Origin: Lingula anatina
Taxonomy: Eukaryota; Animalia; Brachiopoda
Direction: 5' to 3'
Length of the DNA: 64,000 nucleotides
NCBI GenBank assembly: GCA_051362555.1
Contig: CM120644.1
Span: forward strand, 9,928,954-9,992,953
Shown here: in pieces, positions 1-48,800 of the stretch
Position numbering within the stretch: position 1 is the first letter of the stretch
How the letters are laid out: each line of letters starts with the position of its first letter
The notes under the pieces: model-generated
Databases searched by the model: none
What the model was told of the DNA's origin: nothing
The model's input: only the letters and a program-made list of their open reading frames with translations
Program-made: the position numbers and the translations under genes

Positions 1-376
1 TTGCTAGGCAAATTACTTCTTATTACTTGGAATTTGTTGCATGTTGAGATTTAGTTTGCCTTCAACTATGACGCTAAACAGTACCATGGGACGGTTCAAG
101 TATTCGCGTCACCATTAAATGAGGGAATCGCTGAAAAATGTTTTCAATTTCTCTATGCTGGTGTGCTTTCCATCCAAGCAATTGCGGCGATGCAACTTTT
201 GAGAAAAACATATTTGGAAAATAATTCCGCCAAGAAGATTCCATTTTTTAAGCTGAACGTGGTTTAAAGGTGGCAGGAAGCGGTGCTTTACTGGGAAAGT
301 TAACGAATCAATTCAAGTTTGGTCACTTTGATTGATAAGCCTGCCCAAAACGTTTCCAGTTAGACAATTTCAGATG

Positions 377-419
<43 letters not shown>

Positions 420-1813: not shown

Positions 1814-1919
1814 TGTCTCATCCGGGACTCGAACTCGTGACCTTGCGTTACCATGGTTGGCGATTGCTTTGCATGTTTTTTTTACATCCTTGCACGCTAC
1901 CGATTGCGCCGTGAGAGAC
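1814..1919 (-). pseudogene. Degenerate intron-type tRNA-like sequence (Ile-TAT/Asn-like); representative copy, present in units 2-7
   Basis: Minus strand GTCTCTCACGGCGCAATCGGTAGCG...AAGGTCACGAGTTCGAGTCCCGGATGAGACA has an A-box-like D arm, a B box (GTTCGAGTC), GTCTC/GAGAC acceptor pairing and ~30 extra nt at the intron position. T and anticodon stems are imperfect. Confidence 0.55.
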
Positions 1920-2008
1920 CCGCCCACCCTCCGTACGTACGAGTTTCCTCTTATAGTGAACAAGCGCAATTTTCCAAAAATTACTTTTAGGTAAAAAGCA
2001 TCCACCAC

Positions 2009-2088
2009 TCGTCCTCTTAGGATTCGAACCCGTGTACAAGTACACCATTGTGTCTAAATCACCGCAGTTACCACGGAGCCACGGAACC
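2009..2088 (-). pseudogene. Degenerate tRNA-like sequence (Leu-TAG-like, long variable arm); representative copy, one per unit
   Basis: Minus strand GGTTCCGTGGCTCCGTGGTAACTGCGGTGATTTAGACAC...GGGTTCGAATCCTAAGAGGACG has A box TGGCnnnGTGG, a perfect B box GGTTCGAATCC and a TTTTT run shortly downstream. Stems are mismatched. Confidence 0.55.
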
Positions 2089-5000
2089 TTCGTTATCAAC
2101 GTATGATCAAATGGTGACTTTCTACCGTGTCACACAGAGTGTCAGTCTGGCTGGACATGTGAACATCTGCAATTGCAAACGAAAGCCCGAGTGCCGTTCG
2201 TATTGTATATTTCAGCGCAACCAACGCCAGACCCCGAACATAGGCTTAACGTCAACGTAGAAGTTCCTGACGTACACGAGGCCCAGATTAAGAAACCAAC
2301 ACGGAGCTTTGCTAGGCAAATTACTTCTTATTACTTGGAATTTGTTGCATGTTGAGATTTAGTTTGCCTTCAACTATGACGCTAAACAGTACCATGGGAC
2401 GGTTCAAGTATTCGCGTCACCATTAAATGAGGGAATCGCTGAAAAATGTTTTCAATTTCTCTATGCTGGTGTGCTTTCCATCCAAGCAATTGCGGCGATG
2501 CGACTTTTGAGAAAAACATATTTGGAAAATAATTCCTCCAAGAAGATTCCATTTTTTAAGCTGAACGTGGTTTAAAGGTGGCAGGAAGCGGTGCTTTACT
2601 GGGAAAGTTAACGAATCAATTCAAGTTTGGTCACTTTGATTGATAAGCCTGCCCAAAACGTTTCCAGTTAGACAATTTCAGATGCTTTTTTTTTTTTTTT
2701 TTTTTTTTTTTCCACCTAGTTTACGTTTGACTTCACCTCTAACGTTCTAGGGCACGGTGAGAGCCAAAGCGGTTCAAGCCTTGGCGGTTTTAGATTTGAG
2801 TAGTCTTTACCATTTCAAAGGGCGGCTGTTGCCCTGGGCTCTACATGACCACATGAACAGTCTTGATAAGCAGGACCCAAGAGGTACGGCATAAAATACA
2901 AAAATTGTGATAAGGTAAACCAATCGCGGCGACGAAATGAATAAAGAATTTCGGATATTTAATGCAAAAGGTAAATTTGCCGGGACTTTCGAGGGGCTGC
3001 ACTCGTTTTCCCTGACTGGCCGTTTCTCTGGCCAGCTGGTTGTTGTGTTGAAGTGACATGTCTCATCCGGGACTCGAACTCGTGACCTTGCGTTACCATG
3101 GTTGGCGATTGCTTTGCATGTTTTTTTTACATCCTTGCACGCTACCGATTGCGCCGTGAGAGACCCGCCCACCCTCCGTACGTACGAGTTTCCTCTTATA
3201 GTGAACAAGCGCAATTTTCCAAAAATTACTTTTAGGTAAAAAGCATCCACCACTCGTCCTCTTAGGATTCGAACCCGTGTACAAGTACACCATTGTGTCT
3301 AAATCACCGCAGTTACCACGGAGCCACGGAACCTTCGTTATCAACGTATGATCAAATGGTGACTTTCTACCGTGTCACACAGAGTGTCAGTCTGGCTGGA
3401 CATGTGAACATCTGCAATTGCAAACGAAAGCCCGAGTGCCGTTCGTATTGTATATTTCAGCGCAACCAACGCCAGACCCCGAACATAGGCTTAACGTCAA
3501 CGTAGAAGTTCCTGACGTACACGAGGCCCAGATTAAGAAACCAACACGGAGCTTTGCTAGGCAAATTACTTCTTATTACTTGAAATTTGTTGCATGTTGA
3601 GATTTAGTTTGCCTTCAACTATGACGCTAAACAGTACCATGGGACGGTTCAAGTATTCGCGTCACCATTAAATGAGGGAATCGCTGAAAAATGTTTTCAA
3701 TTTCTCTATGCTGGTGTTTTTTTTTTTTTTTTTCCACCTAGTTTACGTTTGACTTCACCTCTAACGTTCTAGGGCACGGTGAGAGCCAAAGCGGTTCAAG
3801 CCTTGGCGGTTTTAGATTTGAGTAGTCTTTACCATTTCAAAGGGCGGCTGTTGCCCTGGGCTCTACATGACCACATGAACAGTCTTGATAAGCAGGACCC
3901 AAGAGGTACGGCATAAAATACAAAAATTGTGATAAGGTAAACCAATCGCGGCGACGAAATGAATAAAGAATTTCCGATATTTAATGCAAAAGGTAAATTT
4001 GCCGGGACTCACGAGAGGCTGCACTCGTTTTCCCTGACTGGCCGTTTCTCTGGCCAGCTGGTTGTTGTGTTGAAGTGACATGTCTCATCCGGGACTCGAA
4101 CTCGTGACCTTGCGTTACCATGGTTGGTGATTGCTTTGCATGTTTTTTTACATCCTTGCACGCTACCGATTGCGCCGTGAGAGACCCGCCCACCCTCCGT
4201 ACGTACGAGTTTCCTCTTATAGTGAACAAGCGCAATTTTCCAAAAATTACTTTTAGGTAAAAAGAATCCACCACTCGTCCTCTTAGGATTCGAACCCGTG
4301 TACAAGTACACCATTGTGTCTAAATCACCGCAGTTACCACGGAGCCACGGAACCTTCGTTATCAACGTATGATCAAATGGTGACTTTCTACCGTGTCACA
4401 CAGAGTGTCAGTCTGGCTGGACATGTGAACATCTGCAATTGCAAACGAAAGCCCGAGTGCCGTTCGTATTGTATATTTCAGCGCAACCAACGCCAGACCC
4501 CGAACATAGGCTTAACGTCAACGTAGAAGTTCCTGACGTACACGAGGCCCAGATTAAGAAACCAACACGGAGCTTTGCTAGGCAAATTACTTCTTATTAC
4601 TTGGAATTTGTTGCATGTTGAGATTTAGTTTGCCTTCAACTATGACGCTAAACAGTACCATGGGACGGTTCAAGTATTCGCGTCACCATTAAATGAGGGA
4701 ATCGCTGAAAAATGTTTTCAATTTCTCTATGCTGGTGTGCTTTCCATCCAAGCAATTGCGGCGATGCGACTTTTGAGAAAAACATATTTGGAAAATAATT
4801 CCGCCAAGAAGATTCCATTTTTTAAGCTGAACGTGGTTTAAAGGTGGCAGGAAGCGGTGCTTTACTGGGAAAGTTAACGAATCAATTCAAGTTTGGTCAC
4901 TTTGATTGATAAGCCTGCCCAAAACGTTTCCAGTTAGACAATTTCAGATGCTTTTTTTTTTGTTTTGTTTTGTTTTCCACCTAGTTTACGTTTGACTTCA

Positions 5001-7440
5001 CCTGTGACGTTCTAGGGCACGGTGAGAGCCAAAGCGGTTCACGCCTTGGTGGTTTTAGATTTGAGTAGTCTTTGCCATTTCAAAGGGCGGCTGTTGCCCT
5101 GGGCCCTACATGACCACATGAACAGTCTTGATAAGCAGGACCCAAGAGGTACGGCATAAAATACAAAAATTGTGATAAGGTAAACCAATCGCGGCGACGA
5201 AATGAATAAAGAATTTCCGATATTTAATGCAAAAGGTAAATTTGCCGGGACTTTCGAGAGGCTGCACTCGTTTTCCCTGACTGGCCGTTTCTCTGGCCAG
5301 CTGGTTGTTGTGTTGAAGTGACATGTCTCATCCGGGACTCGAACTCGTGACCTTGCGTTACCATGGTTGGCGATTGCTTTGCATGTTTTTTTACATCCTT
5401 GCACGCTACCGATTGCGCCGTGGGAGACCCGCCCACCCTACGTACGTACGATTTTCCTCTTATAGTGAACAAGCGCAATTTTCCAAAAATTACTTTTAGG
5501 TAAAAAGAATCCACCACTCGTCCTCTTAGGATTCGAACCCGTGTACAAGTACACCATTGTGTCTAAATCACCGCAGTTACCACGGAGCCACGGAACCTTC
5601 GTTATCAACGTATGATCAAATGGTGACTTTCTACCGTGTCACACAGAGTGTCAGTCTGGCTGGACATGTGAACATCTGCAATTGCAAACGTAAGCCCGAG
5701 TGCCGTTCGTATTGTATTTTTCAGCGCAACCAACGCCAGACCCCGAACATAGGCTTAACGTCAACGTAGAAGTTCCTGACGTACACGAGGCCCAGATTAA
5801 GAAACCAACACGGAGCTTTGCTAGGCAAATTACTTCTTATTACTTGGAATATGTTGCATGTTGAGATTTAGTTTGCCTTCAACTATGACGCTAAACAGTA
5901 CCATGGGACGGTTCAAGTATTCGCGTCACCATTAAATGAGGGAATCGCTGAAAAATGTTTTCAATTTCTCTATGCTGGTGTGCTTTCCATCCAAGCAATT
6001 GCGGCGATGCGACTTTTGAGAAAAACATATTTGGAATATAATTCCGCCAAGAAGATTCCATTTTTTAAGCTGAACGTGGTTTAAAGGTGGCAGGAAGCGG
6101 TGCTTTACTGGGAAAGTTAACGAATCAATTCAAGTTTGGTCACTTTGATTGATAAGCCTGCCCAAAACGTTTCCAGTTAGACAATTTCAGATGCTTTTTT
6201 TTTTTTTTTTTTTGTTTTGTTTTCCACCTAGTTTACGTTTGACTTCACCTGTGACGTTCTAGGGCACGGTGAGAGCCAAAGCGGTTCACGCCTTGGTGGT
6301 TTTAGATTTGAGTAGTCTTTGCCATTTCAAAGGGCGGCTGTTGCCCTGGGCCCTACATGACCACATGAACAGTCTTGATAAGCAGGACCCAAGAGGTACG
6401 GCATAAAATACAAAAATTGTGATAAGGTAAACCAATCGCGGCGACGAAATGAATAAAGAATTTCCGATATTTAATGCAAAAGGTAAATTTGCCGGGACTT
6501 TCGAGAGGCTGCACTCGTTTTCCCTGACTGGCCGTTTCTCTGGCCAGCTGGTTGTTGTGTTGAAGTGACATGTCTCATCCGGGACTCGAACTCGTGACCT
6601 TGCGTTACCATGGTTGGCAATTGCTTTGCATGTTTTTTTACATCCTTGCACGCTACCGATTGCGCCGTGAGAGACCCGCCCACCCTCCGTACGTACGAGT
6701 TTCCTCTTATAGTGAACAAGCGCAATTTTCCAAAAATTACTTTTAGGTAAAAAGAATCCACCACTCGTCCTCTTAGGATTCGAACCCGTGTACAAGTACA
6801 CCATTGTGTCTAAATCACCGCAGTTACCACGGAGCCACGGAACCTTCGTTATCAACGTATGATCAAATGGTGACTTTCTACCGTGTCACACAGAGTGTCA
6901 GTCTGGCTGGACATGTGAACATCTGCAATTGCAAACGTAAGCCCGAGTGCCGTTCGTATTGTATTTTTCAGCGCAACCAACGCCAGACCCCGAACATAGG
7001 CTTAACGTCAACGTAGAAGTTCCTGACGAACACGAGGCCCAGATTAAGAAACCAACACGGAGCTTTGCTAGGCAAATTACTTCTTATTACTTGGAATTTG
7101 TTGCATGTTGAGATTTAGTTTGCCTTCAACTATGACGCTAAACAGTACCATGGGACGGTTCAAGTATTCGCGTCACCATTAAATGAGGGAATCGCTGAAA
7201 AATGTTTTCAATTTCTCTATGCTGGTGTGCTTTCCATCCAAGCAATTGCGGCGATGCGACTTTTGAGAAAAACATATTTGGAAAATAATTCCTCCAAGAA
7301 GATTCCATTTTTTAAGCTGAACGTGGTTTAAAGGTGGCAGGAAGCGGTGCTTTACTGGGAAAGTTAACGAATCAATTCAAGTTTGGTCACTTTGATTGAT
7401 AAGCCTGCCCAAAACGTTTCCAGTTAGACAATTTCAGATG

Positions 7441-7482
<42 letters not shown>

Positions 7483-8588
7483 CCACCTAGTTTACGTTTG
7501 ACTTCACCTCTAACGTTCTAGGGCACGGTGAGAGCCAAAGCGGTTCAAGCCTTGGCGGTTTTAGATTTGAGTAGTCTTTACCATTTCAAAGGGCGGCTGT
7601 TGCCCTGGGCTCTACATGACCACATGAACAGTCTTGATAAGCAGGACCCAAGAGGTACGGCATAAAATACAAAAATTGTGATAAGGTAAACCAATCGCGG
7701 CGACGAAATGAATAAAGAATTTCCGATATTTAATGCAAAAGGTAAATTTGCCGGGACTCACGAGAGGCTGCACTCGTTTTCCCTGACTGGCCGTTTCTCT
7801 GGCCAGCTGGTTGTTGTGTTGAAGTGACATGTCTCATCCGGGACTCGAACTCGTGACCTTGCGTTACCATGGTTGGTGATTGCTTTGCATGTTTTTTTAC
7901 ATCCTTGCACGCTACCGATTGCGCCGTGAGAGACCCGCCCACCCTCCGTACGTACGAGTTTCCTCTTATAGTGAACAAGCGCAATTTTCCAAAAATTACT
8001 TTTAGGTAAAAAGAATCCACCACTCGTCCTCTTAGGATTCGAACCCGTGTACAAGTACACCATTGTGTCTAAATCACCGCAGTTACCACGGCGCCACGGA
8101 ACCTTCGTTACCAACGTATGATCAAATGGTGACTTTCTACCGTGTCACACAGAGTGTCAGTCTGGCTGGACATGTGAACATCTGCAATTGCAAACGAAAG
8201 CCCGAGTGCCGTTCGTATTGTATATTTCAGCGCAACCAACGCCAGACCCCGAACATAGGCTTAACGTCAACGTAGAAGTTCCTGACGTACACGAGGCCCA
8301 GATTAAGAAACCAACACGGAGCTTTGCTAGGCAAATTACTTCTTATTACTTGGAATTTGTTGCATGTTGAGATTTAGTTTGCCTTCAACTATGACGCTAA
8401 ACAGTACCATGGGACGGTTCAAGTATTCGCGTCGCCATTAAATGAGGGAATCGCTGAAAAATGTTTTCAATTTCTCTATGCTGGTGTGCTTTCCATCCAA
8501 GCAAATGCCGCAGGGTTCTCCTTCTAGCACATATGGTACGTCCTTTAGGTCGCCCCCCCTTCCCCCAGGTTACCTCACATCTTTTTTG

Positions 8589-9386: not shown

Positions 9387-14276
<4,890 letters not shown>

Positions 14277-26415: not shown

Positions 26416-29400
26416 ATGGAGACTCCAGGTAAAAAGCCTGGGATGTCGTCCAAGAGGAAGCAGAAACAGAGTCCTTCATATTCAATAAATTCTTCAAAGT
26501 CCAAGTTGAACTCCAGTCTGCGTCTTAACAGGAGCACCAGAGGTAAATACAATTGGAAACATTTTACTGATTTGATATTCATATCAGTGGATGTCTTATT
26601 ATAGCTAAAGATGAAATGTGATACTATATATATATGACAAGAAAAGAAGTTTTTCTTCTTTGTTGGAGTGAATTTTACAATACTTATTTAAAAAAAAATC
26701 TATACAAATTGTCTTTTAAAATCCTCTCTTCCTTACATCATTAGCATGTGTATTCACTAATTTAAAAAAGAATATAGAGTGAACTCCAAGATCATTTTGC
26801 CTTATTTTTCAGTTAACTCCTCTGCAGTGAAAACGAAGAATCGTCAGCTGGCTGCAGCCTTGGGAAGAAAAAGTCAGGAGTTGGAGTTCCTGAAAGAGGA
26901 GTTTTGTGAGTTAAGAAATGAACACCATGAGTTGAAAGTAAAAGCACTGAGGTTTCACAGAATTGCCCAGGTGACCAATGAAAACATAGAAGAAGTGGTA
27001 GTTGGAAGAGTGCAGGTAGGGGAAATCACTAGTATTAGTTTGGGATTCCTGTACTAGTTAGAATTTGGGCTCCTTAGAAAATTTTAAAATTCTAATTGAA
27101 TGGTTTTGGCCAAGTGAGAAATTGAAATAGTGAATTTGCAAAAATAAAAATAAAAAAATTAAAAAAAGGAAATGTTTTAAACTTTCGAAATTGATTGAAA
27201 CTGTAAAAAAATGGAAACTTTTGTTACAACTTCCTATTTGTACTAGGTATTTATTTTTGAGCAAAAAACTAAATATCGCTTCTCTCTGTTTGTAGGAACG
27301 CATGTGCGATGTTAGCGCTCTTCTGAACAAAGTTAGCAACCAGCTGCTGGGGGCGGTCAAGCTTCTGGGCACTGCCGTGGAGATGACCACTGACCCCAAA
27401 CGCAAGTCCTTAGAAACGCTGTGTAGCAACAGAGCTTCCTCTTTAGGTACCAATAAGTCTGATGATGATAGCCCTGTCATTGCAGTTCCAAATCCTAAGA
27501 GGTTAGAAGAAGAGGGGTTGTCAATTATAATCTTCAGAATCACCTGTTGAAAGATGAATTCCAGACCCTTGGTGTGGTTTGCTTTAACTAAGGAAAAAAA
27601 TCGAGTAACATTCCGTTTTTTGCTTAAAAAGTTTTTATTCCAGTTTGATTCCATGATTTTATTTTCTTGAATGATGTAAAAATATGCTAGAGAATCTACA
27701 GCATTTTAAAGTATATTCAAAATAGTGTGCTAACATGTATAACATATACTTGACCTGTACTTCTCTGCTCTTTTTTTACAAGTGGTGTTGAAAATATTCT
27801 TCACAGAATAAGAGAACTCCAAGGGTTGGATTTAAAAAATGGTACATAATGTACATATATGAAATGAGATATAGAGTTACTTTGAATAAATGATGTTAAA
27901 ACTACTAATAATATAATTGCTTTTTACTTCAGGTCTATATACTATGATGCAGGATCCAAAAACCCAGCTGGTCGAGTGCCCCAAAAATCCTCCACCATCC
28001 CTCTAAAGTCAAAGCTCTCCACACCAGCTGTAGACATTCACCCTGCTGCTCTCAGTGCTGTTGCAGCATCAGTGAATAATGTAGCAGGAGACCTCCATGA
28101 GATGAGTGTCATCGTGGAGCAGTCGTTTATGGGAGAGAAGATGGACACCTTGGATATGAACAGGGTGAATGTGCTGGACACAGGTAAGTTTCTGTGCAAA
28201 ATCTCCCTCTGCAGGATAATAACGCAAATGTTTTTATGTTGACAGCATATCAAATAATTGGTTAAAATAGCTTTAAGATGTCAATGTCATTTCACTCTTA
28301 ATACAATGCTTTTACTTCATTTTAATACACAAAACATTTTGTCAAATGATGAAAATTGCTTTCAAACTTTTTATTTATCTTATCAAATTTTTTAAAAAAA
28401 ATTGTTGCTCTACAGTTTAATTGAATCGTTCACAAATAGTTGCTTTCCATTGGAATTGAATAATTCATAAATATATATTTTACTCTTTGTTTTCAGTTGA
28501 AGATGGAGAAAACTTGCCAGAGGATGAAGTTCCACAAGGGGAGCCAAATCCAACATCCAAGACGAACTCCAGCCTACCAGCCCCAAGTGCACCAACAGCT
28601 GAGAACCCTGGCTCTCCTGGCAAGTGTGACACTGATGTGCAGAACATGACTGTTTACTTGGATGAGCAGATGGATTTTACAGAGTGTATAAGTGTGCCAG
28701 TTGGTCTGGCTTCATTTATTAGCGCCAACTCTGAAACTGCTGATAAGTCTGTGAAGGTAGAGGAGAGGTCAGTGGAAGCAGTAGAGCAGAAAGAAGGCAG
28801 GTTGTCTGGTCCTGAAGACAAGGAGGACTCCGAGGATGAGATGGTCAAGCTGAAGAAGAAGCTGAAGGCAATGCAGAATGTCAAGGTGTTTGTAAATGAC
28901 TGCAGCAAAAAGAAAACTGGAGTATCAAAATCTGAGAATGACATCGCAACAGTAGAGTCTGCGATTGGAAAAGAAACAAGTGTAAAGAAAACCTCAACAA
29001 AAGAGCGTGCAAAAAAGAAGGCAAAAAATCAGGAGTCTTCAAGTGAGAGTCGTCCTCCCTGCACAGAGCTGCCACCTAGGGAGAGCAGGAAGTCACGCAG
29101 TAAAGGGAGGCAGGAGCCACAATACCGTGAATTGAGTAGCGACAGCGAGTCTGAAACCCCACCAAGTGACACATCTTTAGACTCCACGACCTCGTCCAAG
29201 AGCTATGGCATTGTGTTCAACAAACCAGGGAAAATCTCTTTTACTGCAGGTAATGTGACAGGAAGTGAATTAAGTTAGTAATTTATTGGATTTTAATGTT
29301 ATTATTAAATTATCTTTAAGATTAATTTAATTATTATAATCTGCAAGTGTTATAAATTTAATTTTTTTTTTATTATCAGTTTGATTTTTCTTTGTCTTTA

Positions 29401-29789
29401 CTTATGTCAGGGCGAATAGACATCTTGAATGGTGATGGTAAACAGAAAAGTCGTTTGCCAATTAAAGTTCCAACAAAGTCGCGATCAAAGCACAAAACCA
29501 GCTCCAAGCAAAGATCTAGGACAAAGACAAAAAAGGATGAAAAGATTACAGATGAGGCCAAAATTCAGGATGAGCCCAAGTCTGTGTTTGATTACACTGG
29601 CACACCACAGTCAGCCGAAGAAAAGGGAGTTTATGACATGTCCATGAACGAATCGGTGCAGCAAGAAAGACTCCCATTGAGCAAATTTCGTGAGAGACAA
29701 CTAACTGGTACTGAAGAGGCAAGCACGCCGTCTGCAAATGCCAGGTCAAAACCTAGGGCACTGGTGAGTTAGATGATAAATGTTTATAT

Positions 29790-29836
<47 letters not shown>

Positions 29837-32315
29837 TATGTAAATCTTTGATTAGCTGCTTGAAAAATATAATTACTACTGGATAATTATCATTAATCAG
29901 TATATATTTTACCACATGCATGAGTTTATTTACATGTTTTTCTTTCTTTTCAATAATCTAATAAAAGAAATTTTAAAAGTATCCTAACATAAAGTTTTTT
30001 TTCGTCAATATGTAGGTAAATAATCAGACATCAGATCCTGAATCTCAGTGTGAAGACAAACCTGCCAGGAGCCGAACTAAAACCATAAAACCCAAGGAGG
30101 AAATGAAGCTGGAGCCAGCAGCAGTCAAAAGTCGCACAAAGTCGAAAAGAAAAAGTAGCAAATCTGATTATATTGAACCCAGAAAAACAGATGATGAAGA
30201 TCAAGAAAAATCTACAGAAAAGTCCACTTGTAGAAAAGACGCACAGACAAGACCAACAGGCAACAATAGAGAACAGTTCACCTCTCAAACAAAACAGGCC
30301 ATTGAAGACACCAGTGTTTTTGACTCCCCAGTGAGAAGCAAAACACAGGATGACAGTTTGGTCAATGAAGAGAACATAGTGATTGAAGAGACACCAGCGC
30401 CACTAGGTGGCAGTCGATCCAAGACAAGACTAACAAGTGAGGAACATGTGCTGTCTGTTGCCACAGAGAAGTCTCCTGTGGCAGTGAAGAAGAGCTGGAC
30501 AAAGACTAAACTTGATAGTGATAGTGATAACAAGACAGACCACCAAGAAGATCAAGGTATATTTTGATGTATTAAAATTGATTCGAATGAATATCTAATG
30601 AGACATTTCTTTAAATTTTAACCAATTGGAAAGGAACATAAAATCTTATATTTAGCCAAATATTGTTTTAAATTAATATGAAAGTCTGAAGTAGTTGTTT
30701 CTGAACAATCATCTTGTACAAACTGCAAGATATATATTTTTAAAAAAATTCAGTTGGTCCAGTCCCCAGTCCTACCCGTGTCACTAAGAGAGGGAAGGAA
30801 GTGAAGTCAAAGAAGAAACATCGTTACACTTACTGTGTTGAAGATTTATTTTCTGGTGATGACAATAATGTATTTCACGCAAATAATCTGGAAATTCCTG
30901 CACCATTAAGTGAAGATGCCTCAGAAGAACCAGAGGGAGAGGTAATGCTTTGGATACTTTTATTCAGTTATTACCAAAATGTGTTAGGTTCATAACAAAA
31001 AAAAAACATGTATAGTATAAGGAGGGGCTGGGTGTTTTTCACAGGTTTTTTTTGTGGGGGAGGTACACTTGACCTTGACTTGGGGAAGACTCAATTTCTA
31101 GACTTTATGGTACACCTGATAACCATTGCTAGGCTTGTCACAGTTCCAAGTTTGAAATATTTTGGATGATCTCTACTATTTGTATATTTTTGTCATTTTC
31201 AACATTAGGTTCTAGAGGAACATGCTATAGAGGGCGCCACCCATACTTCCCCAAAACAAGACCAGGCATCTAAGACGAGCCAGGAGAAGAAGAGCAAGAA
31301 GAAGCACCGATACACGTATGTGCGACCCGACAGTGGATTTGATGAGGATGTGGCTGGGAAAACTGACGAGAAAAATATCTCAGAAAACCAAGAGGACATT
31401 GTCAGTGAGGGTCAAATCAATGAAAAAGCCAAATCTGAAGACAGGAAAAACACAGACGACACACTGAGAACAGAGGAGAAATGTCAGATGGATGAGAAGA
31501 TAGATGGCAGTTGTCAAGAGGAACCAGTGCAAGAGGCACAGAATGAAGACGCAAGTCAGGACAAAGGTAGAGTGTTGTGATAAGAATTGTCTGCAGTCCA
31601 CTTAATGCAAATTCATGTTTGATCAGAGTTTATTACTATTTAGAATTTTGCAGCACTAAGACACATCCCATAATGCATCTACTTCATTTTCAACTTGCCA
31701 CATCAAAAAGTTAACACCTTTTATAGAATTATATTTCAAAAAATTTAGAAAATTTGTTTTTCTTTACATTTGTGATGCGGTTTCCTTCTATCGTTTTTTT
31801 TTTTTTTTTCCTTCATATTCAGATAAAGAGGAGAAGAAAAAATCTAAGACAAAGAAGAGATCCCGAAGTGTCAAGCCCTCTGAACTGGAAGAAGAAAGGT
31901 TGGTTACTACTTCCATTGTACATATCTCCAAGCAATATTTTCTTTCAACTGTCATTGATCATTGGATGTTTAAATTTTATGAAACGAGCCATATTTTACA
32001 AAATTTCCAATAGAAACTTTGATTCTTTTAGCCCATTAATATTTACATGATTTTATATGCTGTGACAAAATGATTCAATTTATAGTTTTCTCTTTTCAAT
32101 GATATGCAAAGTTGCCATTGTCAATGAATAGGCCAAGATCATGGAAAGATTAAGCAATATGCAAAAGCATATCTTGATTAAAGTAATGATATTATTCTTA
32201 TTTGTGTAGGCCAAACGCAGATGACAATAATGGTGTGAAGAGACCCAGAAGAGCAGCTGCCAATGTCAACTTGAAGGAACCTAGTTTAGGAGGGTAAGCT
32301 TGCATTAAGTAGATG

Positions 32316-32364
<49 letters not shown>

Positions 32365-35142
32365 ACATACATATCATTCATATGACTGGAACCCTAAGTA
32401 CAAACATTAACTCAATTTTTTAATGTTATTAAGGAAATATCAGGCATTTTTTTTATGAAACAAGCAGTGTTATTACAGAAAAATTGAGCTAAGAAATATA
32501 CAACATATAAATAATGAATCTACAGCTTCCAAAATAGTGAGCGTTTTTGAATAAAATAATAATAACAATAATAATAATAATTTCTATGTTGAGCAATCTT
32601 GAAGCAACAAATCATATGTGTATATAAAAAAGATAAACCCTATAGAATATGAGTCTTAAATAAAAAAAACCTTCAATTGAGTATTGTACCTCTCTTGAGC
32701 AATGTGATATAAATAAATAGTTTTAAAATAATCATGCATTCCCTGTGGCACATGTAATAGTATAACCATCATCCCATTTTTCCCTGAACCAGTGTTCCCA
32801 CAAAGAGTCCACTATCTTATAGCACTGCCTGGCCTTTTCTGTGTTCCTGGTTTTGTCAAACACCACCACCCAGAGAGGCCCGGAGGCAATGGTCCGCACC
32901 CTGTATCCCAGAGCCCAGTGTGCATCAATGGCGTCTCGTGAGAACTTGGTGTCCACTATCCAGGTTTGTTCTGGCGAGTTCAGGAGGTCCCCGGGGTACA
33001 TTATGACGTACCAGAAACCATGAATGTACGACACGTGAGATATGCGTAAGCCCTCGGCGTATGCCCTCTGAAGCAGCTGTTCGGGCCATGTGCCTCTTTG
33101 GTCCCTGCTGCTCACTAAGAGAGGACTGCAGGCAATGTCTGGGGTGTACTTTCTGAATATCATCACTTTTTTACCTCCCATAGCTGACATTGAGGAGAGC
33201 TCCCTTCCACCGTATTTCCACTCCTTTGCCACCATTTTTCTCAGTTGTTTTGGTGTGTGTATTTTAGAGTGCACCTGAACAGTTTCGGTGAACTTCCACT
33301 TTGGGTGGCTGTAGGTCTTGTTGCAAAATAGCCATGTCTTAGAATTGCTGCACAGCATTCCTAAACTGAGCTCCTGGTTGAGAAAGAGCCTGCAGTCTTC
33401 TGTGGTCTGAAGGTGTGTGTCAGTGGTAGTGTACGAGTTCTCTCCTTGCCAGCTTGGTTCTGTCATGAACACCACCCACTTTATGCGCTCTGCCTCACGA
33501 CAGTCTACATCGTGCAGTGTTATCCTGTCGATTTCTGCCTGGTAAATGCCAGAGACCCCCGTGATAGGGGCCCTGGTGGACCCTCTCTTTGCAGAATGAC
33601 CAATGCCAAATTTGGCCCATGTAGCAAAATACTCACAGTCGTCATTGTCCATTTCATGCCCCTTCTGGCCCACCATGGCCAGCGCCCTCTCTACCACAGC
33701 TTGTGGGGGGAGGGGAGCACCAAGATGTGGATGAGCTTTATTATTGACCCGCGCTTCACCCTTTTTGGAAACCGACCTATAGGTGTCTCTGGTACATACA
33801 GTGAAGACCTGAAATCTGTCTCTTTCTGATGTTTTCCCTTCCTCGGCCCTGGCGCACCCTGAGGATCTGGTGGAGGTCCCCGTGATGTGGACCAGCTCTC
33901 CATGGCCTATGTTGACTGCCCAGTGTGTGTAGTAGCCACGGTCAAACTCCAGGAGGTCTCCCGGATCACCCGGCATCTCCGGGGTGCTGGCTGCCATGTG
34001 GCTGCCTCTGTGCTGTAAATTTTGATGAGATAGAGCTTTTTTTTTTTTTTATTTTTCACTTAACTGTGGCCAAGTTGTTATCACTGCCTCAAGAACTCTG
34101 GGTGGAATCAACCTTGTCCTCGGTTACAAGTTGACAGTTTTTTTCCTGTGATGTTTTCATTTTGATCAGCAGTCAGATGATGCATTTGTCTGTTTCTTCT
34201 GTAGTGTCGGTTGAAGTCCTGCCTTTCTCTGACCAGCAGTGACCAATTTCAAGCTTTTATATCAGCAACAGGTTGTGTGAATTCTTGTGAACATGTTCAC
34301 AGTACAGCTCAGTCTAAACCTGTATCTGTTGGCAGGTACAATACAGCTCCATTTCTGAAGTCACGTCTTAGAGATGAGAGCACACGGGCATCAACTTTCA
34401 ACACTGTTAGTAGATTAAAGCTTCATTGGACTCCCGCGCTCTTTTGTTAGCTGTTGCTAATACCTCCCTCTGAACCCGCGACTTCTGCGAGATCAAGTTG
34501 ATTCTAGTGCTTACTTTTCAAAACATCAATAACCAGTGCATTGTTATAGAGAATAATGAGGTCCCATTGTTGTGGCTGGGGACAAACAGCGTCACCCATT
34601 GTTATGGTGCCTTGGGTGAATGTATGGGTTGCATAGAGCCTGGAGTGGTTTATATTAGGCTTTGAATTGATCCTAATAGCATGATAACTTAACAAATCAA
34701 TATCCTTGATCTTGTATGATGCAGGAAGTTTGAGGAAGTTCTTTTTATTTACGTTTCTGATAAAAAAAAAACACCTTTGTATGTGATTTGTTCCCATTGC
34801 AGGATTCTTTAAATTTTTTTCATCAGGTATTTAATAAATTTTGTGTCTGTTTGTCTTTTTTAAAATACTTTTTATAAACTTTCCCTTTGAAAACCTATTG
34901 CTTGGTCTGGCTGTTTATTAATGTGACAGAGTATTCATTTCCACAAATTTTCAAAGTCAATTATGGCCCATTCCATGGTATCCATTTAACTAATAAAGGG
35001 GAAAAAAAGACTTCTGTTGTTTCATTATTGTTCACACAGATTAGGCCACACTTTTTTAATTTTATGGATGACATCCTGCGCGCGCACCGATTTTCGTCCG
35101 TTCTCCCAAAAAAAAAAAAAAATCCCCCCCCCCCAAAACCGC

Positions 35143-35177
<35 letters not shown>

Positions 35178-38100
35178 AGGAAGTTGGTTGTCGCAAACAT
35201 CGTTATTGAATTTGCAGGAAAATGCAATCGGCAATTCTCGGCTAATTCCGCAAGCTCTTAAGAGATTTTAACAAAAAACCAAACTTTTTAGAAAAAAAAC
35301 AGGGACTAACTTTGAATGTAAAAATGGATTCATAACCATTGGTAAGTATGGGAAAATTAAAGTCATAAAGAGAACGGGGGCCGTCTTTTTGGATTGGTTT
35401 GCCATTGATATTGGACATGGAGATATCACCCTTTTACAATTATACGAAAGGCTGGCCGCGGCCAGCGATCATCGCCCGGAAAATTTCAGTGACATTCTGT
35501 CCAGAGCAGCACATACCAGTTTCTTTTTGGAGCGAAAAAAGGGTCGACAAGAGCGTCGTGGTATTTGGTGGACTGAAGGTTGGACAGGCCACCCGATAGT
35601 TGGCTGCTAGCGTTTGAGTCGAAGTAGACAAAATGGCATCGACCGAAATTACCTTAGTAGTAGGAAGCATAGGCCTATCTTTGCTTCTTTTTTTTAACAA
35701 TTCTGTGAAGTGTTTACAATGCTTTAATTGTACCACCAGCGTTAGCGCTGGCGGTACACATGGTTTCGGTCTCGTCCGGATCGTTCCGCCGGCTCCGCCG
35801 GACGGCTACCGTTACCGCTTCTCCTCCTAGACGGTAAGGCCCCCCATACCCATCTCATGGATTTAGGTCACCTATAATCTCAACTCGTTCCACGTAAAAT
35901 TTGGGCTTTGTCGGTATTGGGGTCTGGGTGTGGCACTCATTGCAATGCACCCTTGTCCAAAAATGGCAAAATTAAATGCTAATTATCTACCCTACGGAAG
36001 GAGTTACGGGAAAATTTTCTACAGACGGCTTTCCAAAAGTCATATGTGTAGATTTCAAATATACCCTCGGATTTGACCTTTGACCTTTACTTCAAGGTCA
36101 AATGGGCCAAAATTTTCAAAAAAATGAAATTTTTTACGAAAAAAAAATTTTTTGCCCTGTTATTCAGACACCACACAGACTTAACCAATAATATTATTGG
36201 AAAGTGTTACCCTTCAGGTCATCTTTCATCTCCGTGAATTTGGGGTCAATCGGTGCATTTTCACAGGAGTAGCGGCCATAAGATACCGAAACTGAAAACT
36301 GTCTCTAATTCGGGAACCGTTAATGCTAGAGACCCATTCTTTTTTGCATTTTGTAGAGCATGTAAAGCCCAACACTGGAGGTGGTCTCGGTTTTTTTGTA
36401 TTCCATACGGTTTTCGAGTTACGCTGTATCAAAAAGTACATATTGGTGGTGAAAGGAAAATGTACGGAAGCCCACTGGTGCCATATGTAGAAAAAAAAAT
36501 TATCTCGAAATTTCGAGATACTATTTTGAAATTTGAACAAAAAAATTTACCACCAGCGTTGGCGCTGGCGGTACACATGGTTTCAGTCCCGTCCGGTCCG
36601 TTCCGCCGGCTCCGCCGCCATGTTACCGTTACCGCTTCTCCTCCTAGACGGTAAGGGCCCCCGTACCCATCTCATGGATTTAGGTCACCTATAATCTCAA
36701 CTCGTTCCACGTAAAATTTGGTTTTGTCGGTATTGGGGTCTGGGTGTGGCACTCATTGCAATGCACCCTTGTCTAAAAATGGCAAAATTAAATGCTAATT
36801 ATCTACCCTACAGAAGGAGTTACGGGAAAAATTTCTATAGACGGCTTTCCAAAAGTCATATGTGTAGATTTCAAATATACCCTCGGATTTGACCTTTGAC
36901 CTTTACTTCAAGGTCAAATGGGTCAAAATTTTCAAAAAAATGAAATTTTTTACGAAAAAAATTTTTTTTGCCCTGTTATTCTGACGCCACACAGACTTAA
37001 CCAATAATATTATTGGAAAGTGTTACCCTTCAGGTCATCTTTCATCTCCGTGAATTTGGGGTCAATCGGTGCATTTTCACAGGAGTAGCGGCCATAAGAT
37101 ACCGAAACTGAAAACTGTCTCTAATTCGGGAACCGTTAATGCTAGAGACCCATTCTTTTTTGCATTTTGTAGAGCATGTAAAGCCCAACACTGGAGGTGG
37201 TCTCGGTTTTTTTGTATTCCATACGGTTTTCGAGTTACGCTGTATCAGAAAGTACATATTGGTGGTGAAAGGAAAATGTACGGAAGCCGACTGGTGCCAT
37301 ATGTAGAAAAAAAAATTATCTCGACATTTCGAGATACTATTTTGAAATTTGAACAAAAAAAATTTTATCTCGAAATTTCGAGATAGCATTTTGAAATTTG
37401 AACAAAAAAAAAAATTATCTCGAAATTTCGAGATAGCATTTTGATATTTGAGCAAAAAAATTTATCTCGAAATTTCGAGATAGTATTTTGAAATTTGAAC
37501 AAAAAAAATGCTATCTCGAAATTTCGAGATAATTTTTTTTTTCAACATATGGCACCAGTCGGCTTCCGTAAAAATGTGCAGTACGGTAATGGATAATAAA
37601 TTTTGAACTCCGGAAAAATAAAACATAATGCTTGGCAAAGCAGACAACTTGTGGTCAAAAATGACATTATTTTATCAAATTTAAACTTCTGCAACTTCAG
37701 AGAACCTCCCATTTCAAGAACTTTGACCAAAATGACCTTTTCTTTATTTTAATTAATTTTTTCTGTAGGAAATTTATGGCACATTATGGTAACTCCAAAA
37801 TTATAACATTTAGTCCCTTATATCTCCAAAACTGGCAGAGATAGGTCCATAGTTACTATTGAAGTTGAATAGGAAGTCATATACTGGCAATCTTACTGTG
37901 ACCTTGACATTGACCTTTGACCTACTTTTCACCATGAACTGAACTTTGCAAATTTTGCTTCCCTTTTATCTCCAAAACTGGCAGAGATAGGTCCATAGTT
38001 ACTATTGAAGTTGAATAGGAAGTCATATACTGGCAATCTTACTGTGACCTTGAAATTGACCTTTGACCTACTTATCACCATGAACTGAACTTTGCAAATT

Positions 38101-40090
38101 TTGCTTCCCTTTTATCTCCAAAACTGGCAGAGATAGGTCCATAGTTACTATTGAACTTGAATAGGAAGTCATATACTGGCAATTTTACTGTGACCTTGAA
38201 ATTGACCTTTGACCTACTTTTCACCTTGAACTGAACTTTGCAAAATTTGCTTCCCTTTTATCTCCAAAACTGGCAGAGATAGGTCCATAGTTACTATTGA
38301 ACTTGCATAGGAAGTCATATACTGGCAATTTTACTGTGACCTTGAAATTGACCTTTGACCTTCTTTTCACCATGAACTGAACTTTGCAAATTTTGCTTCC
38401 CTTTTATCTCCAAAACTGGCAGAGATAGGTCCATAGTTACTATTGAAGTTGAATAGGAAGTCATATACTGGCAATCTAAATGTGACCTTGAAATTGACCT
38501 TTGACCTACTTTTCACCATGAACTGAACTTTGCAAATTTTGCTTCCCTTTTATCTCCAAAACTGGCAGAGATAGGTCCATAGTTACTATTGAAGTTGAAT
38601 AGGAAGTCATATACTGGCAATCTTACTGTGACCTTGAAATTGACCTTTGACCTACTTTTCACCATGAACTGAACTTTGCAAATTTTGCTTCCCTTTTATC
38701 TCCAAAACTGGCAGAGATAGGTCCATAGTTACTATTGAAGTTGGATAGGAAGTCATATACTGGCAATTTACTGTGACCTTGAAATTGACCTTTGACCTAC
38801 CTTACAATGAACTTAACTTTGATTGCACCATTTTTAGTTATATATATTTTTTGCATATTTTGAAAATTCTTGTTGATTGCATTTTTACAGCTTGTCAAGC
38901 ACAAGACTGGTGGCTGCACCCCTTATTTTGTGTATGTGGGGGTCTATACGAATGCGCTTGCTCCAGCTGGTGGTACAATATTCGGAGGCGGTATCGCCTC
39001 TCTGATCCTCTAGTTTTCTGAGAGTACAAATTAAGACACGCTGTTTATTTGATATTTGTTTGATTGGATGCTATACCAACAGAATGCATGAAATAACCTT
39101 AAATAGATTTGGTAATATGCAGCATATATATTCATGACTTTTTACCTTTCTACGAAATAGGCCCTATTCACAAAGCTTTAATATTTTGAGAGCATGGATA
39201 AAGACATGTTGTTAGTTTGATACATGTTTCTGTGGTAAATTAGTGTTTCCAGCTGTATACTGAAAACATAACTTTTCTTAAGCAGTTTTTTTTTTTTTTT
39301 GGACTGTTTTTTTTTTTTTTCGCCCGCTCGCACCGACTTTGGGGTCCCCAGAGGATGTCATCCATAAAAATAAAAAAGTGTGGCCTTATTATTATTATTT
39401 GATCGGTGCAAACAAAATTTTTATATCAGCTTTAATGTAGACCTTTTATTGCAACAATTTTAATTTGCAACAAATAAATTCACTTTGTTCACATGCTTAG
39501 ATTTGATTTTAAAAATATTGGTAATTAATTCAGCAAGTTGAGGCGGGGGGATCCAGGCACTAGTAGTATCTACCAAGGAGAGAATATCCCACTGTATAAG
39601 GAGAAAAACAAACACAAAAAAGGTGAGTGGACAGGCTATATTCAAGTTCACTCTCAGAATTGATCCTTTTTGATAACTTTGTAAGGTCAACTAAACGCAG
39701 TGGCAACATTGTTTTCATTTATCTATCAGAAGAAATTAAAATAAATAAATAAAATAAGAATAAGAATAATGATTAAAATAAACAACAACAACAGAAGTGC
39801 ATTCTCTTTTTAGTTAAAATACAGTTTGATAAAGAAAAGGAAACTTTAGCTACTTTTCTTCAGTATGTTCTTTTTTGTTAAAAGTAATTAATAGGACCAA
39901 AACATGCGTGCTAGAAATAAGCCTGCAGTTGTGACGTTAAATGAATTTTTAACTTTTTCGCTCATTTGGAATCATATTCATATGTTGATAAACGAGTAAC
40001 AAATATTTATTTTAATCCATTTCAGATGCAAAGAAGAGGAGCACCCTTTCTAGCATTACAAATATCAAACCAGAACATGAAGTTGTGTAG
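26416..40090 (+). CDS. SGO1: Shugoshin (multi-exon)
   Basis: N-terminal coiled coil KNRQLAAALGRKSQELEFLKEEFCELRNEHHELK (exon 26813-27015); long disordered middle exons 27296-31898; SGO motif RPRRAAANVNLKEPSLGG|KLRRGDP joined from exons 32211-32293 and 39534-39622; last exon 40026-40090 (DAKKRSTLSSITNIKPEHEVV*). Confidence 0.88.
32317..32362. repeat. (TG)n microsatellite
   Basis: Directly visible. Confidence 0.95.
32732..33997 (-). CDS. Single-ORF LRAT/HRASLS-type NlpC/P60 protein with C-terminal W-rich repeat domain (DUF7477-like); nested antisense in a shugoshin intron
   Basis: 421-aa uninterrupted ORF. PGDLLEFDRGYYTHWAVNIGHGELVH, VNNK, VVERALAMVG and DCEYFATWAKFG match the LRAT family with both His and the Cys retained. 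The C-terminal part has repeated Q-x(9-12)-W-xx-G-Y-x-I...W-hydrophobic units. Confidence 0.88.
   Translation of the reverse strand: MAASTPEMPGDPGDLLEFDRGYYTHWAVNIGHGELVHITGTSTRSSGCARAEEGKTSERDRFQVFTVCTRDTYRSVSKKGEARVNNKAHPHLGAPLPPQAVVERALAMVGQKGHEMDNDDCEYFATWAKFGIGHSAKRGSTRAPITGVSGIYQAEIDRITLHDVDCREAERIKWVVFMTEPSWQGENSYTTTDTHLQTTEDCRLFLNQELSLGMLCSNSKTWLFCNKTYSHPKWKFTETVQVHSKIHTPKQLRKMVAKEWKYGGRELSSMSAMGGKKVMIFRKYTPDIACSPLLVSSRDQRGTWPEQLLQRAYAEGLRISHVSYIHGFWYVIMYPGDLLNSPEQTWIVDTKFSRDAIDAHWALGYRVRTIASGPLWVVVFDKTRNTEKARQCYKIVDSLWEHWFREKWDDGYTITCATGNA
35731..37360 (+). repeat. Direct tandem duplication (~817 bp) of the HINE 5' portion
   Basis: TACCACCAGCGTT starts at 35731 and 36548; the copies are colinear and highly similar. 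Confidence 0.92.
37279..37570. mobile_element. Foldback MITE with internal palindromic repeats
   Basis: 26-bp perfect TIR TACGGAAGCCGACTGGTGCCATATGT; AAAATG on both flanks; internal repeats of palindrome TATCTCGAAATTTCGAGATA. Confidence 0.88.
37821..38820. repeat. 146-bp tandem repeat, ~7 copies, inside the HINE
   Basis: TATCTCCAAAACTGGCAGAG at 37821, 37967, 38113, 38259, 38405, 38551, 38697. Confidence 0.97.
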
Positions 40091-45800: not shown

Positions 45801-48800
45801 TTCTCCTGCCATCATCGATGAGGAAGGCCCCAAATTTGAAGGCAGCGGCGTAGGCAAAGAACAAAACACCCTGCGTGAATCCAAAGGTTAGCCCTGTCAG
45901 ATGAGCCTGCCTTGTGCTTGTCCTGGAACAATACAAATCTCCATGATTTAGAGCTGTTAATGACCATAAAAAAGTGACCAAATGATCACATTTTTGTCAC
46001 ACACACATGAACACACACAATTTAAACTTGACCATACTACTTAACATGCAATCAATAATAAAATCTGTGAACATTTACCTCTTTACAGTCAATACATTCC
46101 TCGCCAAAGCCTTTCTTAATAATTAATATTCCCACAGCCATTAAAACATTCTAAATACACCTTTCTCTACATTTGGGAAAAAAACAACTTACTTGAAAGG
46201 AGCATCTAGCTTCTCTTTGTACAGCTGGTAGAACTTCTCCTCCTTGGTGAGAGAGGCCACAGTGCGCATGTTCTCAATGGCTTCCACGGCAGTCTGCAGA
46301 GGAATATGGAGTGTTAACAGGCACATGTAGAACTTGCACATAGTTACAGTATATACCTGCCACCACAGGTTAATGTACACAACACATATGTTAAGCTTTA
46401 GATTTTGAAGTACAATTTTACATACATGAAATCCTTGAACAATACATTTAAACAATACTAATGCCATAATAAAACAGACATTAACCTTTAAACGCTTTTG
46501 TATTCAAATTTAAACTAAACAAGGAAGATCAATGCTAACATGATACAAGTATTTTATAGCAATCTACCTGTAGGTCAAATTAATACCAATGTACAGAAAG
46601 CAATACACTCACACAGGCAGACAGGACTGGATAGCAAAATTTTCGAGCATGCAACAAACTCCTCAGTTGGCAGAAAACAGTCCCACAGAGTTTGTAATCA
46701 AATTTTTCATTACAAATTTGCAAGAGCAATTCATGTTTGCAAAGGAGTATTGAATTTGTCAGTAGACCTTATGTGCATGGTAAAACTACTTCTTGCAAAT
46801 TTGTTTAAGACTTTGTGTCCTGAAATTTTGCTTCCAATTTTATCCCAACTTAATTTTATCATTTTTATTTTGAATCTGATTCACCAAGCTAAGGATAAAA
46901 TAGAAACAAAAACATATAATACAGAGTATTAACTAGAAAAGTAACGTTAAAAGAGACAGAGATAAGGGCAGTTAAATTAAACCAGTAGAAAGTGGCAAAG
47001 TTTTTAGTAATTAGAATCAATTTGCTATAACTGTTAACCTTATCTTTTCTACCATACCCAAAGTCACCAGCTGTGGGATCTAAATAAAGGTTCCTGCTGA
47101 CAGGATCAAAAATTCATGGGGCAAATTAAGCTGGATTTCCACATACCAAAAAAATTTCTAACCTCAAATCCACTGTTTATAATCAAATTATGATTGACGT
47201 TTTTTATGATGACTTTAGACATGCATGCTTGTTAATTTTCTTATTGCAGTGTAAAATTAAGATTTTAGTTTAATTTGCATATCTATAGAGTACGGAACAT
47301 CACTGCCCAAATCAATCTTAAAAACAGGTGATCCTTGTGTTGCCAATATCAAAATATAAATGAATCAATTTTAACACAATTTTGAGCTTGAATCCGAGGA
47401 CATAGTGACTATAACCAATTTATATCTCAGAATTTCTCAGAATCTCAGAATTTCGGAATCAAACTTTCAATTTGAACAAGCATGAGTTGGAAATCCTGTA
47501 CATGTACCTTCCCAGCATTCTCTAGGGCAGCTCTATCGCGGATTATGGCTCCTTGCATAATCCTCATCTCCAGTGCCCCACCAATTGCGATAAAGGGCAA
47601 AAATGCGAAGATTAGTAAAGTTAGTTCCCAGCTGAATATGAAGGCTATGACTACACCCGTCCCCATGTTAGCTATAGACTGAGCTATTGTCCCCAGTCGA
47701 GCTCCAGTAGCCTATAGTAAAAGAGAGAGATAGAAAACAAAACAGGAGAGTTAGACAGTAATGCCATCTATTGGCCAACATGCAAACAATGTACCTTCCC
47801 AGCATTCTCAAGAGCTTCTTTGTCTCTGATGGTTGCCCCGTACATGAGGCGCATTTCTAGCATTCCCCCCACAGCAATGAAGGGGAGGAAAGCAATGATA
47901 AGAAGAGTCATCTCCCAACTGAAGACAAAAGCGATAATTATGGCAGTTCCCATGTTCGCAATTGATTGGATAATTGTTCCGAGACGAGCCCCTGTGGCCT
48001 GAAATTGTTGCAAAAAGAGGTTATAAAATTGTATTAAGTTAATGCACAAATCTAATAAAACAAGCTTTATAATAAACGTTGTAACAAAAGTTTGTAAGAA
48101 AATAAATACAGTCAGTGTGTGATAATATGTCACTATACACAAGTATCGTCAAAATGCTGCCTTAATACTCAGAAATCCTTTCATCGGTTCAGGTCATTTA
48201 GTCATTAAAATTCAGAAAAAAAAACATTGCACTGTCTGAACCATACTGTAATCACTGCTATCACAGTGTATATGTCCACAGTAATATCTCAGTTCTTAGA
48301 GTACAACCTTTTCTAAATAAATATGTTATTCTATAATTTCTTGGTCTTTTCATGGCAAGAAATATTGTGATAATTTAAAATATTACAATAATTATTATCA
48401 TGATCATAAAAATTCATCTAAAACTAAAAGATGGATGGAACACTTATACAAACATCATAGAACTGTACTAAACTTGCTTCAATTTTAAATAAATAGACAT
48501 AAAGGACTTTCAAATGTATGTTCATAAACATCCTTGAAGTTGGAATCTACACCTGAGCTATAAGAAGCTACACACCCCTTGTACTGCAGAGGTCTCCGTG
48601 GCCAGCCGTGTGGTCAGGGCCCCCGTGCTGTTCTTATGGTCATCAAAGTAGGCAATGTCCTGAGAGAGAAATCAAGTCTGAGAAAGTGCTTTTTTAGATG
48701 ATAATTGTGGTAAAAAAATAGTTCAAATACTTAGCTGCTGAAATTGTTAAATAATTAATTTTTAAAGAAGTAATTTTTAATGAACAGGGATAAATCAAGC

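Follow-up and report, generated by a model that had tools for sequence, protein, structure and literature searches.

We describe here an intact, intronless open reading frame (ORF) of 421 codons plus stop on the minus strand (33997 to 32732; P0001) of a 64,000-nucleotide stretch of the Lingula anatina genome, hereafter the window, in which a catalytic domain of the LRAT/PLAAT type is followed by a predicted linker helix and a predicted five-repeat barrel of the DUF7477 family. The parts are ordinary, and their combination is new within the literature searched. The initial annotation had described the frame as intronless, and all 421 codons are indeed open; its strand is now added. Our leading, if tentative, reading is that of a soluble acyl hydrolase or acyltransferase from a rare animal family, whose barrel brings the enzyme to its substrate, likely by binding a partner protein. 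The protein comprises the following features.

32732..33997, minus strand: LRAT/PLAAT domain, linker helix and five-repeat DUF7477 barrel in one ORF (P0001)
33593..33967, minus strand: permuted NlpC/P60 (LRAT/PLAAT) catalytic domain, residues 11-135 (Pfam, PDB sequence and structure matches)
33494..33556, minus strand: predicted linker helix, residues 148-168 (structure model)
32738..33478, minus strand: DUF7477 domain, residues 174-420 (Pfam and predicted fold)
33923..33925, minus strand: His25, catalytic His in an HWAV context of the HRASLS type (alignment)
33887..33889, minus strand: His37, second His of the triad (alignment)
33629..33658, minus strand: active-site loop, residues 114-123, with Cys121 at 33635-33637 (alignment)

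The Pfam LRAT profile (PF04970) matches residues 11-131 with an E value of 3.3e-17 and 63.3 bits, where the cut-off is 24.3, and residues 5-136 match the human PLAAT2, PLAAT3 and PLAAT4 structures in a PDB sequence search (E 1e-13 to 2e-8); in the PDB alignments His25, His37 and Cys121 lie in register with the catalytic residues of PLAAT3, which bears out the LRAT/HRASLS domain with intact His, His and Cys first proposed from the sequence. The DUF7477 profile (PF24289) covers residues 307-418 only (E 2.6e-11, 43.7 bits, cut-off 27), in agreement with the suggested similarity of the C-terminal part to this family, and several homologs score under the gathering cut-off of this profile. The repeats that had been claimed are present, but they occupy about 247 residues (174-420), as five structural repeats preceded by the linker helix, and not some 270. 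Within the 64-kb window the ORF is the sole match of the barrel profile, and an NCBIfam search gave nothing relevant to it. The conserved C-terminus of the plant MUT9-like/PPK kinases is presumably DUF7477 as well; Pfam found no kinase domain in the ORF, which thus lacks the CK1-type domain of these casein kinases. A stop-free run of 421 codons would arise by chance with a probability of about 6e-14 at intron-like composition. The highest 19-residue hydropathy in the ORF is 1.06, so that no membrane segment follows the enzyme domain, as had been observed earlier, and the maxima lie at 0.87-1.49 in 11 of 11 fusions against 1.89-3.1 in four named animal PLAATs. The enzyme half resembles PLAAT1-5/HRASLS (PF04970; PDB 4DOT, 7ZOT) in its permuted NlpC/P60 domain, His-His-Cys triad, HWA context and GD motif, and it differs from PLAAT1-4 and LRAT in that a 247-residue barrel replaces the C-terminal membrane segment and, in the Lingula copy, in a DCEYF box and an acidic loop.

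The structure was predicted with AlphaFold2 from an eight-sequence alignment, giving a model of middling quality (pLDDT 69, pTM 0.56); a barrel folded from the single sequence reached a pLDDT of 36 and was not used. In the model the linker helix is followed by five strand-helix-strand-strand units, the first of which has an unresolved helix and the last of which is short by one strand; as modelled, the last repeat appears to be completed by the first strand (residues 174-179). Among 48,161 solved chains the best structural match was 7tpu_A (Z 16.4, rmsd 3.1, 211 residues aligned, 8% identity in the structural alignment), the second was PLAAT4 (Z 13.8), and the top match beyond 7tpu_A and NlpC/P60 chains had a Z of 5.6; structure matches to PLAATs give the enzyme half a permuted papain-like fold. 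Foldseek, which also matched PLAAT3 and PLAAT4, ranked 7TPU 13th (probability 0.84, E 0.14). Neither 7TPU nor its repeat family, which we take to be PF17660, was matched in Pfam or PDB phmmer searches at E<=1, and a viral structure library yielded NlpC/P60-type matches and nothing else. The N-domain of 7TPU is a barrel made of five EHEE repeats, a fold predicted, according to the available text of its description, in proteins from all kingdoms but mostly bacteria, and one that its authors speculate to serve substrate positioning or protein-protein interaction (PMC9912923). Like the Lingula barrel, this domain of the fungal polyglycine hydrolase Fvan-cmp adjoins a hydrolase domain; it is, however, N-terminal where the Lingula barrel is C-terminal and apparently circularly permuted, and its catalytic partner is a secreted beta-lactamase-like serine protease instead of a PLAAT-type domain. 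DUF7477 is in this way tied, by prediction, to the solved fold of the 7TPU N-domain, and a small soluble protein of two domains would ease the finding of what the barrel binds.

Elsewhere DUF7477 accompanies a variety of domains. Among 19 non-fusion DUF7477 hits scanned, seven contained Pkinase, and caspase, TIR, M48, PDZ and TPR domains occurred once each; judged by domain architecture, most other DUF7477 proteins look bacterial. The Lingula protein shares with them a Pfam match that exceeds the cut-off, repeats about 46 residues long and a place accessory to a catalytic domain, and it differs from the presumed bacterial Ser/Thr kinase, caspase, TIR, M48, PDZ and TPR fusions in having a PLAAT-type enzyme as partner. 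The fusion barrels form a separate clade, and the repeats have diverged, adjacent-repeat identity being 0.08-0.12 against 0.25-0.70 in 18 other DUF7477 proteins. PF24289 was matched in none of five bacterial genomes, in a scan whose positive control also gave no match. Because DUF7477 is appended to many different catalytic and signalling domains, the barrel can be read as a docking module. In line with such a role, the available text of PMC5437284 reports that the non-catalytic conserved C-terminus of a plant PPK binds its substrate CRY2 in yeast two-hybrid assays; that of PMC5437280 reports that PIF3 is bound by the PPK1 kinase domain alone as well as by the full-length protein, and docking by the plant kinases thus does not always go through the C-terminal domain.

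The barrel's place at the position of the PLAAT anchor, the range of DUF7477 partners and the PPK-CRY2 interaction together lead us, therefore, to favour a soluble enzyme recruited by its barrel. Cys121 would attack an acyl ester or amide, and the resulting thioester would be released to water or to an acceptor in the manner of PLAATs; the barrel would stand in for the lost C-terminal anchor in targeting. The fusion family at large would retain the standard pocket, and in the Lingula copy the acidic loop before Cys121 would likely shift specificity away from long-chain phospholipids or lower activity. According to the available text of PMC9338259, PLAATs act via a thioester on the Cys, and it is the C-terminal segment that governs where they are targeted; PLAAT4 without its transmembrane (TM) segment retains phospholipase activity and cannot deform organelles (earlier work cited there), PLAAT3 without it has no phospholipase activity and causes no mitochondrial deformation even when tethered, and PLAAT5 has no predicted TM segment. 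LRAT without its TM segment is described, in the accessible part of PMC5133064, as active but mislocalised. To judge by TM-less PLAAT3, an anchor-less PLAAT need not act on membranes. We know of no barrel in PLAAT5. PLAATs are seen as membrane-anchored lipid remodellers, and the fusion family lets substrate access without an anchor be tested.

The Lingula protein is not alone. HMMER, run against 1.84 billion representatives, found 658 hits, and among the best 150 of these at least six proteins carry both parts (P0005, P0006, P0009, P0010, P0012 and P0053), with two fragments besides (P0014 and P0093); full-length homologs of 25-31% identity scored above 100 bits. A search from P0005 returned eight hits, with five more proteins bearing both Pfam domains in precomputed form. 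The fusion had been thought unfamiliar in animals, a view borne out neither by these five proteins marked with both Pfam domains nor by the sponge Sycon ciliatum, whose XP_065199331.1 (LOC135831018; P0012 cluster), called an 'uncharacterized protein' in RefSeq and an 'HRAS-like suppressor' in EukProt, has the same LRAT plus barrel core, the same GN ending and a place in the same clade. Between the Sycon and Lingula proteins identity is 41% for the LRAT part but 21% for the barrel, and the Sycon protein, unlike the other, has a low-complexity N-terminal extension of about 470 residues and a canonical NNCEHF. The remaining fusions are NCBI, Logan, ENA or JGI proteins, mostly from short contigs, and nearly all complete members end in the GN motif, P0173 extending beyond it. 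Against complete-domain relatives the Lingula LRAT half is 37-44% identical and the barrel 18-27%. That the fusion is undescribed still seems to stand, in that no describing paper was found, and DUF7477 was named in none, in the literature searched, which covered few subscription papers.

Well-annotated animals gave no named fusion among the best 150 of the 658 HMMER hits, and the family therefore looks patchy, a pattern drawn from a single search whose query is divergent. A word-index search, insensitive next to HMMER, returned no match for P0001 and only P0009 for alignment A1; the ESM Atlas gave no usable barrel match, and for P0005 just LRAT clusters below 0.9; metagenome contig scans found no fusion loci. 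The Sycon cluster includes a 943-residue protein called on a contig of 760 kb, and this suggests that the sponge gene, too, is one ORF; it should be noted that the way in which homolog proteins were called favours intronless copies. P0053 and P0173 lack the His box and start with what resembles a read-through intron, and going by these two sequences some fusion members may contain introns. P0014 is apparently frameshifted right after the LRAT domain when compared with P0155.

Within this family the active site of the Lingula copy stands apart. The replacement of NCEHF by DCEYF was correctly seen, and every motif quoted with it is present in the ORF. His114, Asp119, Asp120 and Tyr123 stand where Tyr, Asn, Asn and His are invariant across the other fusions, and comparison with 217 other LRAT domains underlines the oddity: before the catalytic Cys, where the Lingula copy has Asp, they have Asn in 213 cases and Asp in none; position -7, His here, is Tyr in 204 of the 217; position -4, Asp here, is mostly hydrophobic; and position +2, Tyr here, is His in 208. 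The loop adjoining Cys121 is acidic, and the NCE(HF) box is lost from the Lingula copy, while NCEH[F/Y] is kept in 14 of 14 fusion homologs examined and the other members retain a standard hydrophobic loop. Overall the Lingula copy differs at 10 of 43 sites that are invariant in nine other fusions (0-7 in other members), and four of the 10 adjoin Cys121. The catalytic His lies in an HWAVN context, as opposed to the HYGIY given for LRAT proper, the retinol acyltransferase, in the available text of PMC3184775. Compared in this way, the sequences make an altered pocket in the Lingula copy likely, and its changes amount to a natural experiment on a near-invariant NC box. We considered whether the odd loop might be a frameshift artefact and rejected this, because each of the four changes is an in-frame substitution explainable by a single transition.

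These changes are the starting point of the foremost alternative, which we hold to be unlikely: the family is enzymatic, and the Lingula copy has lost some or all of its activity and persists mainly for its barrel, as a scaffold or dominant-negative partner. It would account for the Asp before Cys121, seen in none of the 217 other LRAT domains, and for the lost Tyr at -7 and His at +2, and it sits well with the terminal branch of the Lingula copy in the LRAT tree (0.61, the longest of the fusion clade) and with the fact that the complete polymorphism evidence for constraint, given below, is confined to the barrel. However, neither the GD motif nor any of the three catalytic residues has been lost, and the LRAT half remains closer to its relatives than the barrel does. 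Asp-Cys is, moreover, the usual motif of canonical NlpC/P60 peptidases, and Asp before the Cys need not for that reason inactivate the enzyme.

Ranking after it, and also unlikely in our view, is a protein-directed amidase, deacylase or peptidase, in which the barrel binds a protein and the Cys domain cuts an acyl-amide or peptide bond. The available text of PMC10318531 counts deubiquitinases/desumoylases (C97) and lipid amidases (C92) among the permuted NlpC/P60 kin, the closest solved fold of the barrel belongs to a protease, and the lack of a membrane anchor and the acidic loop of the Lingula copy fit as well. Sequence, tree and fold, on the other hand, all place the enzyme nearest to the lipid-acting PLAATs, and the standard hydrophobic loop and NCEH box of the other members are not what a protein-directed family would predict. 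Quite unlikely is a bolder account: an ancient and mostly lost animal family, whose fusion arose once before the sponge and Lingula lineages split and exchanged the PLAAT anchor for a probably bacterial barrel, would act as a protein-targeted deacylase or acyltransferase, the Lingula site, with its Asp-Cys and acidic pocket, having been re-tooled to act on an amide or peptide that is not a lipid.

The ORF lies antisense within an intron of a shugoshin-like gene, and candidate splice acceptors, which could serve a 5' untranslated exon, occur a short way 5' of its start codon. The locus has the following features.

32294..39533, plus strand: host intron of the shugoshin-like gene (GT..AG, 7240 nt), with the ORF antisense inside
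32210..32293, plus strand: shugoshin exon with the first part of the SGO motif (Shugoshin_C, E 1.3e-5; RNA depth in X11)
39534..39622, plus strand: following shugoshin exon with the remainder of the SGO motif (as deduced from frame and splice signals)
35044..39385, no strand: high-copy element (terminal inverted repeats, TTA duplication) that does not belong to the gene

The Shugoshin_C match of the upstream exon lies above the Pfam cut-off, and no splice-junction reads across 32293/39534 were seen in the RNA runs mapped. The shugoshin-like gene as a whole (26761-40090, plus strand) has a long low-complexity middle, and its SGO motif is split by the ORF-bearing intron. The high-copy element, 4.3 kb long and about 1 kb upstream of the ORF in the same intron, is one that we take to be PIF/Harbinger-like; its insertion is likely polymorphic, because a contig from DNA run X1 matches only up to 35043 and then continues into other sequence. 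The window was found, whole or in part, in ten DNA runs (four studies, one organism), three of which contain at least half of its words. An X1 contig spans the 5' end of the ORF and runs into the flanking intron without a difference, and the gene is therefore genomic and not a contaminant.

In an alternative that we regard as improbable, the ORF is a retrocopy or duplicate that is not expressed, has lately come under relaxed constraint and is decaying into a pseudogene, the functional gene being located at another genomic site. In keeping with such a fate, the gene is intronless and nested in an intron, no canonical AATAAA occurs on the coding strand between the stop of the ORF and the host exon, and no sense-strand reads over the ORF were found in the stranded runs X11 and X14 (about 6% of each read), where the few reads over it run in the direction of the host gene and shugoshin exons reach a depth of up to 217 in X11. 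The unstranded run X17, 25% of which was read, gave a depth of 0.6 over the ORF in one bin. These RNA data, however, come from three of the nine listed runs, each mapped in part, and 421 codons have stayed open despite an identity of about 30% to the nearest relatives. The composition likewise speaks against a fading copy, as third-position GC (GC3) is 0.59, within the 0.54-0.75 range of seven in-frame ABCB1 exons and unlike the flanks with about 36% GC. So does an excess of synonymous differences: over codons 171-275 an X1 contig differs at nine sites, six synonymous and three non-synonymous, where synonymous sites make up 20% (pN/pS about 0.13, binomial p 0.003, or p 0.02 if a two-hit codon is counted 5/4), a signal from one contig over the barrel half that may represent an allele or a close paralog. 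Three further listed differences in the ORF are synonymous, and nine of the 10 differences in the contig of the LRAT half are not listed. At 33510-34262 the X1 contig depth is 129-200, compared with 36-44 in the barrel half; because contig depth is no copy number, this hints only weakly that the LRAT half, together with the region upstream of it, has extra copies in the genome.

As for origin, separate phylogenies of the two domains, an approach already envisaged in the initial annotation, both recover the fusions as a single clade (98/96 in the LRAT tree; 100/100 in the barrel tree, which has 29 rows and whose bootstrap did not converge). The LRAT tree holds 56 of 218 available domain sequences, namely 11 fusions, seven named animal sequences, 19 bacterial ones (P0161 assigned by placement) and 19 others (five nearest and 14 random). 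The fusion LRAT domains branch with animal PLAAT-like sequences, either nested within them or as their sister, a 100/99 branch parts the bacteria from fusions plus animal PLAATs, and the nearest named LRAT sequences in a larger tree are cnidarian. When the fusions were constrained to join one or another of three bacterial subgroups, each grouping was rejected (p 0.019, 0.005 and 0.018); an AU test did not reject their placement beside all sampled bacteria (p 0.153). In the barrel tree two subgroups agree with the LRAT tree, the Lingula protein stands alone on a long branch, and no donor of the barrel is identifiable among the 29 rows. Scans for the barrel at 85 LRAT loci (80 bacterial, the best of 135, and five from a viral collection) found none, the exact-pattern method being a weak one.

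That the gene was recently acquired entire from a bacterial or viral source, or is contamination, is very improbable: an intronless gene in an intron-rich genome, the bacterial look of most other DUF7477 proteins and the AU test that retains all sampled bacteria would fit it, but the gene sits in a host intron and recurs in several DNA runs of the same organism, the 100/99 branch and the rejected subgroupings separate it from bacteria, the barrel is absent from the LRAT loci scanned, and a deeply diverged homolog exists in a sponge, so that this reading is already largely refuted. The horizontal transfer first entertained for the gene is accordingly not upheld, GC3 being host-like and the enzyme half grouping with animal PLAATs; the barrel by itself may still have come from bacteria long ago. 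A single old fusion followed by vertical inheritance and many losses would be the simplest reading of the sequences. Retroposition of the Lingula copy into the shugoshin intron, the other origin put forward at the outset, is plausible and stays unproven, because the Sycon gene, too, appears to be a single ORF.

The window contains further features of interest. Among the neighbours of the locus are exons encoding SRCR domains and an ABC transporter gene with many introns. The former are followed by a long last coding exon (9663-14276, plus strand) and likely encode a membrane protein of the scavenger-receptor type. The latter, ABCB1-like and on the minus strand, has tandem similar copies of one transmembrane-region exon at 47448-47711 and 47771-48148, and these twin exons are candidates for mutually exclusive splicing. 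A tandem array with a unit of about 1245 bp occupies positions 1-8400, where it is seen as recurring translations, and a 649-codon frame of Ser-rich and acidic low complexity with no Pfam match (P0002; 20133-22082, minus strand) is probably one large exon.
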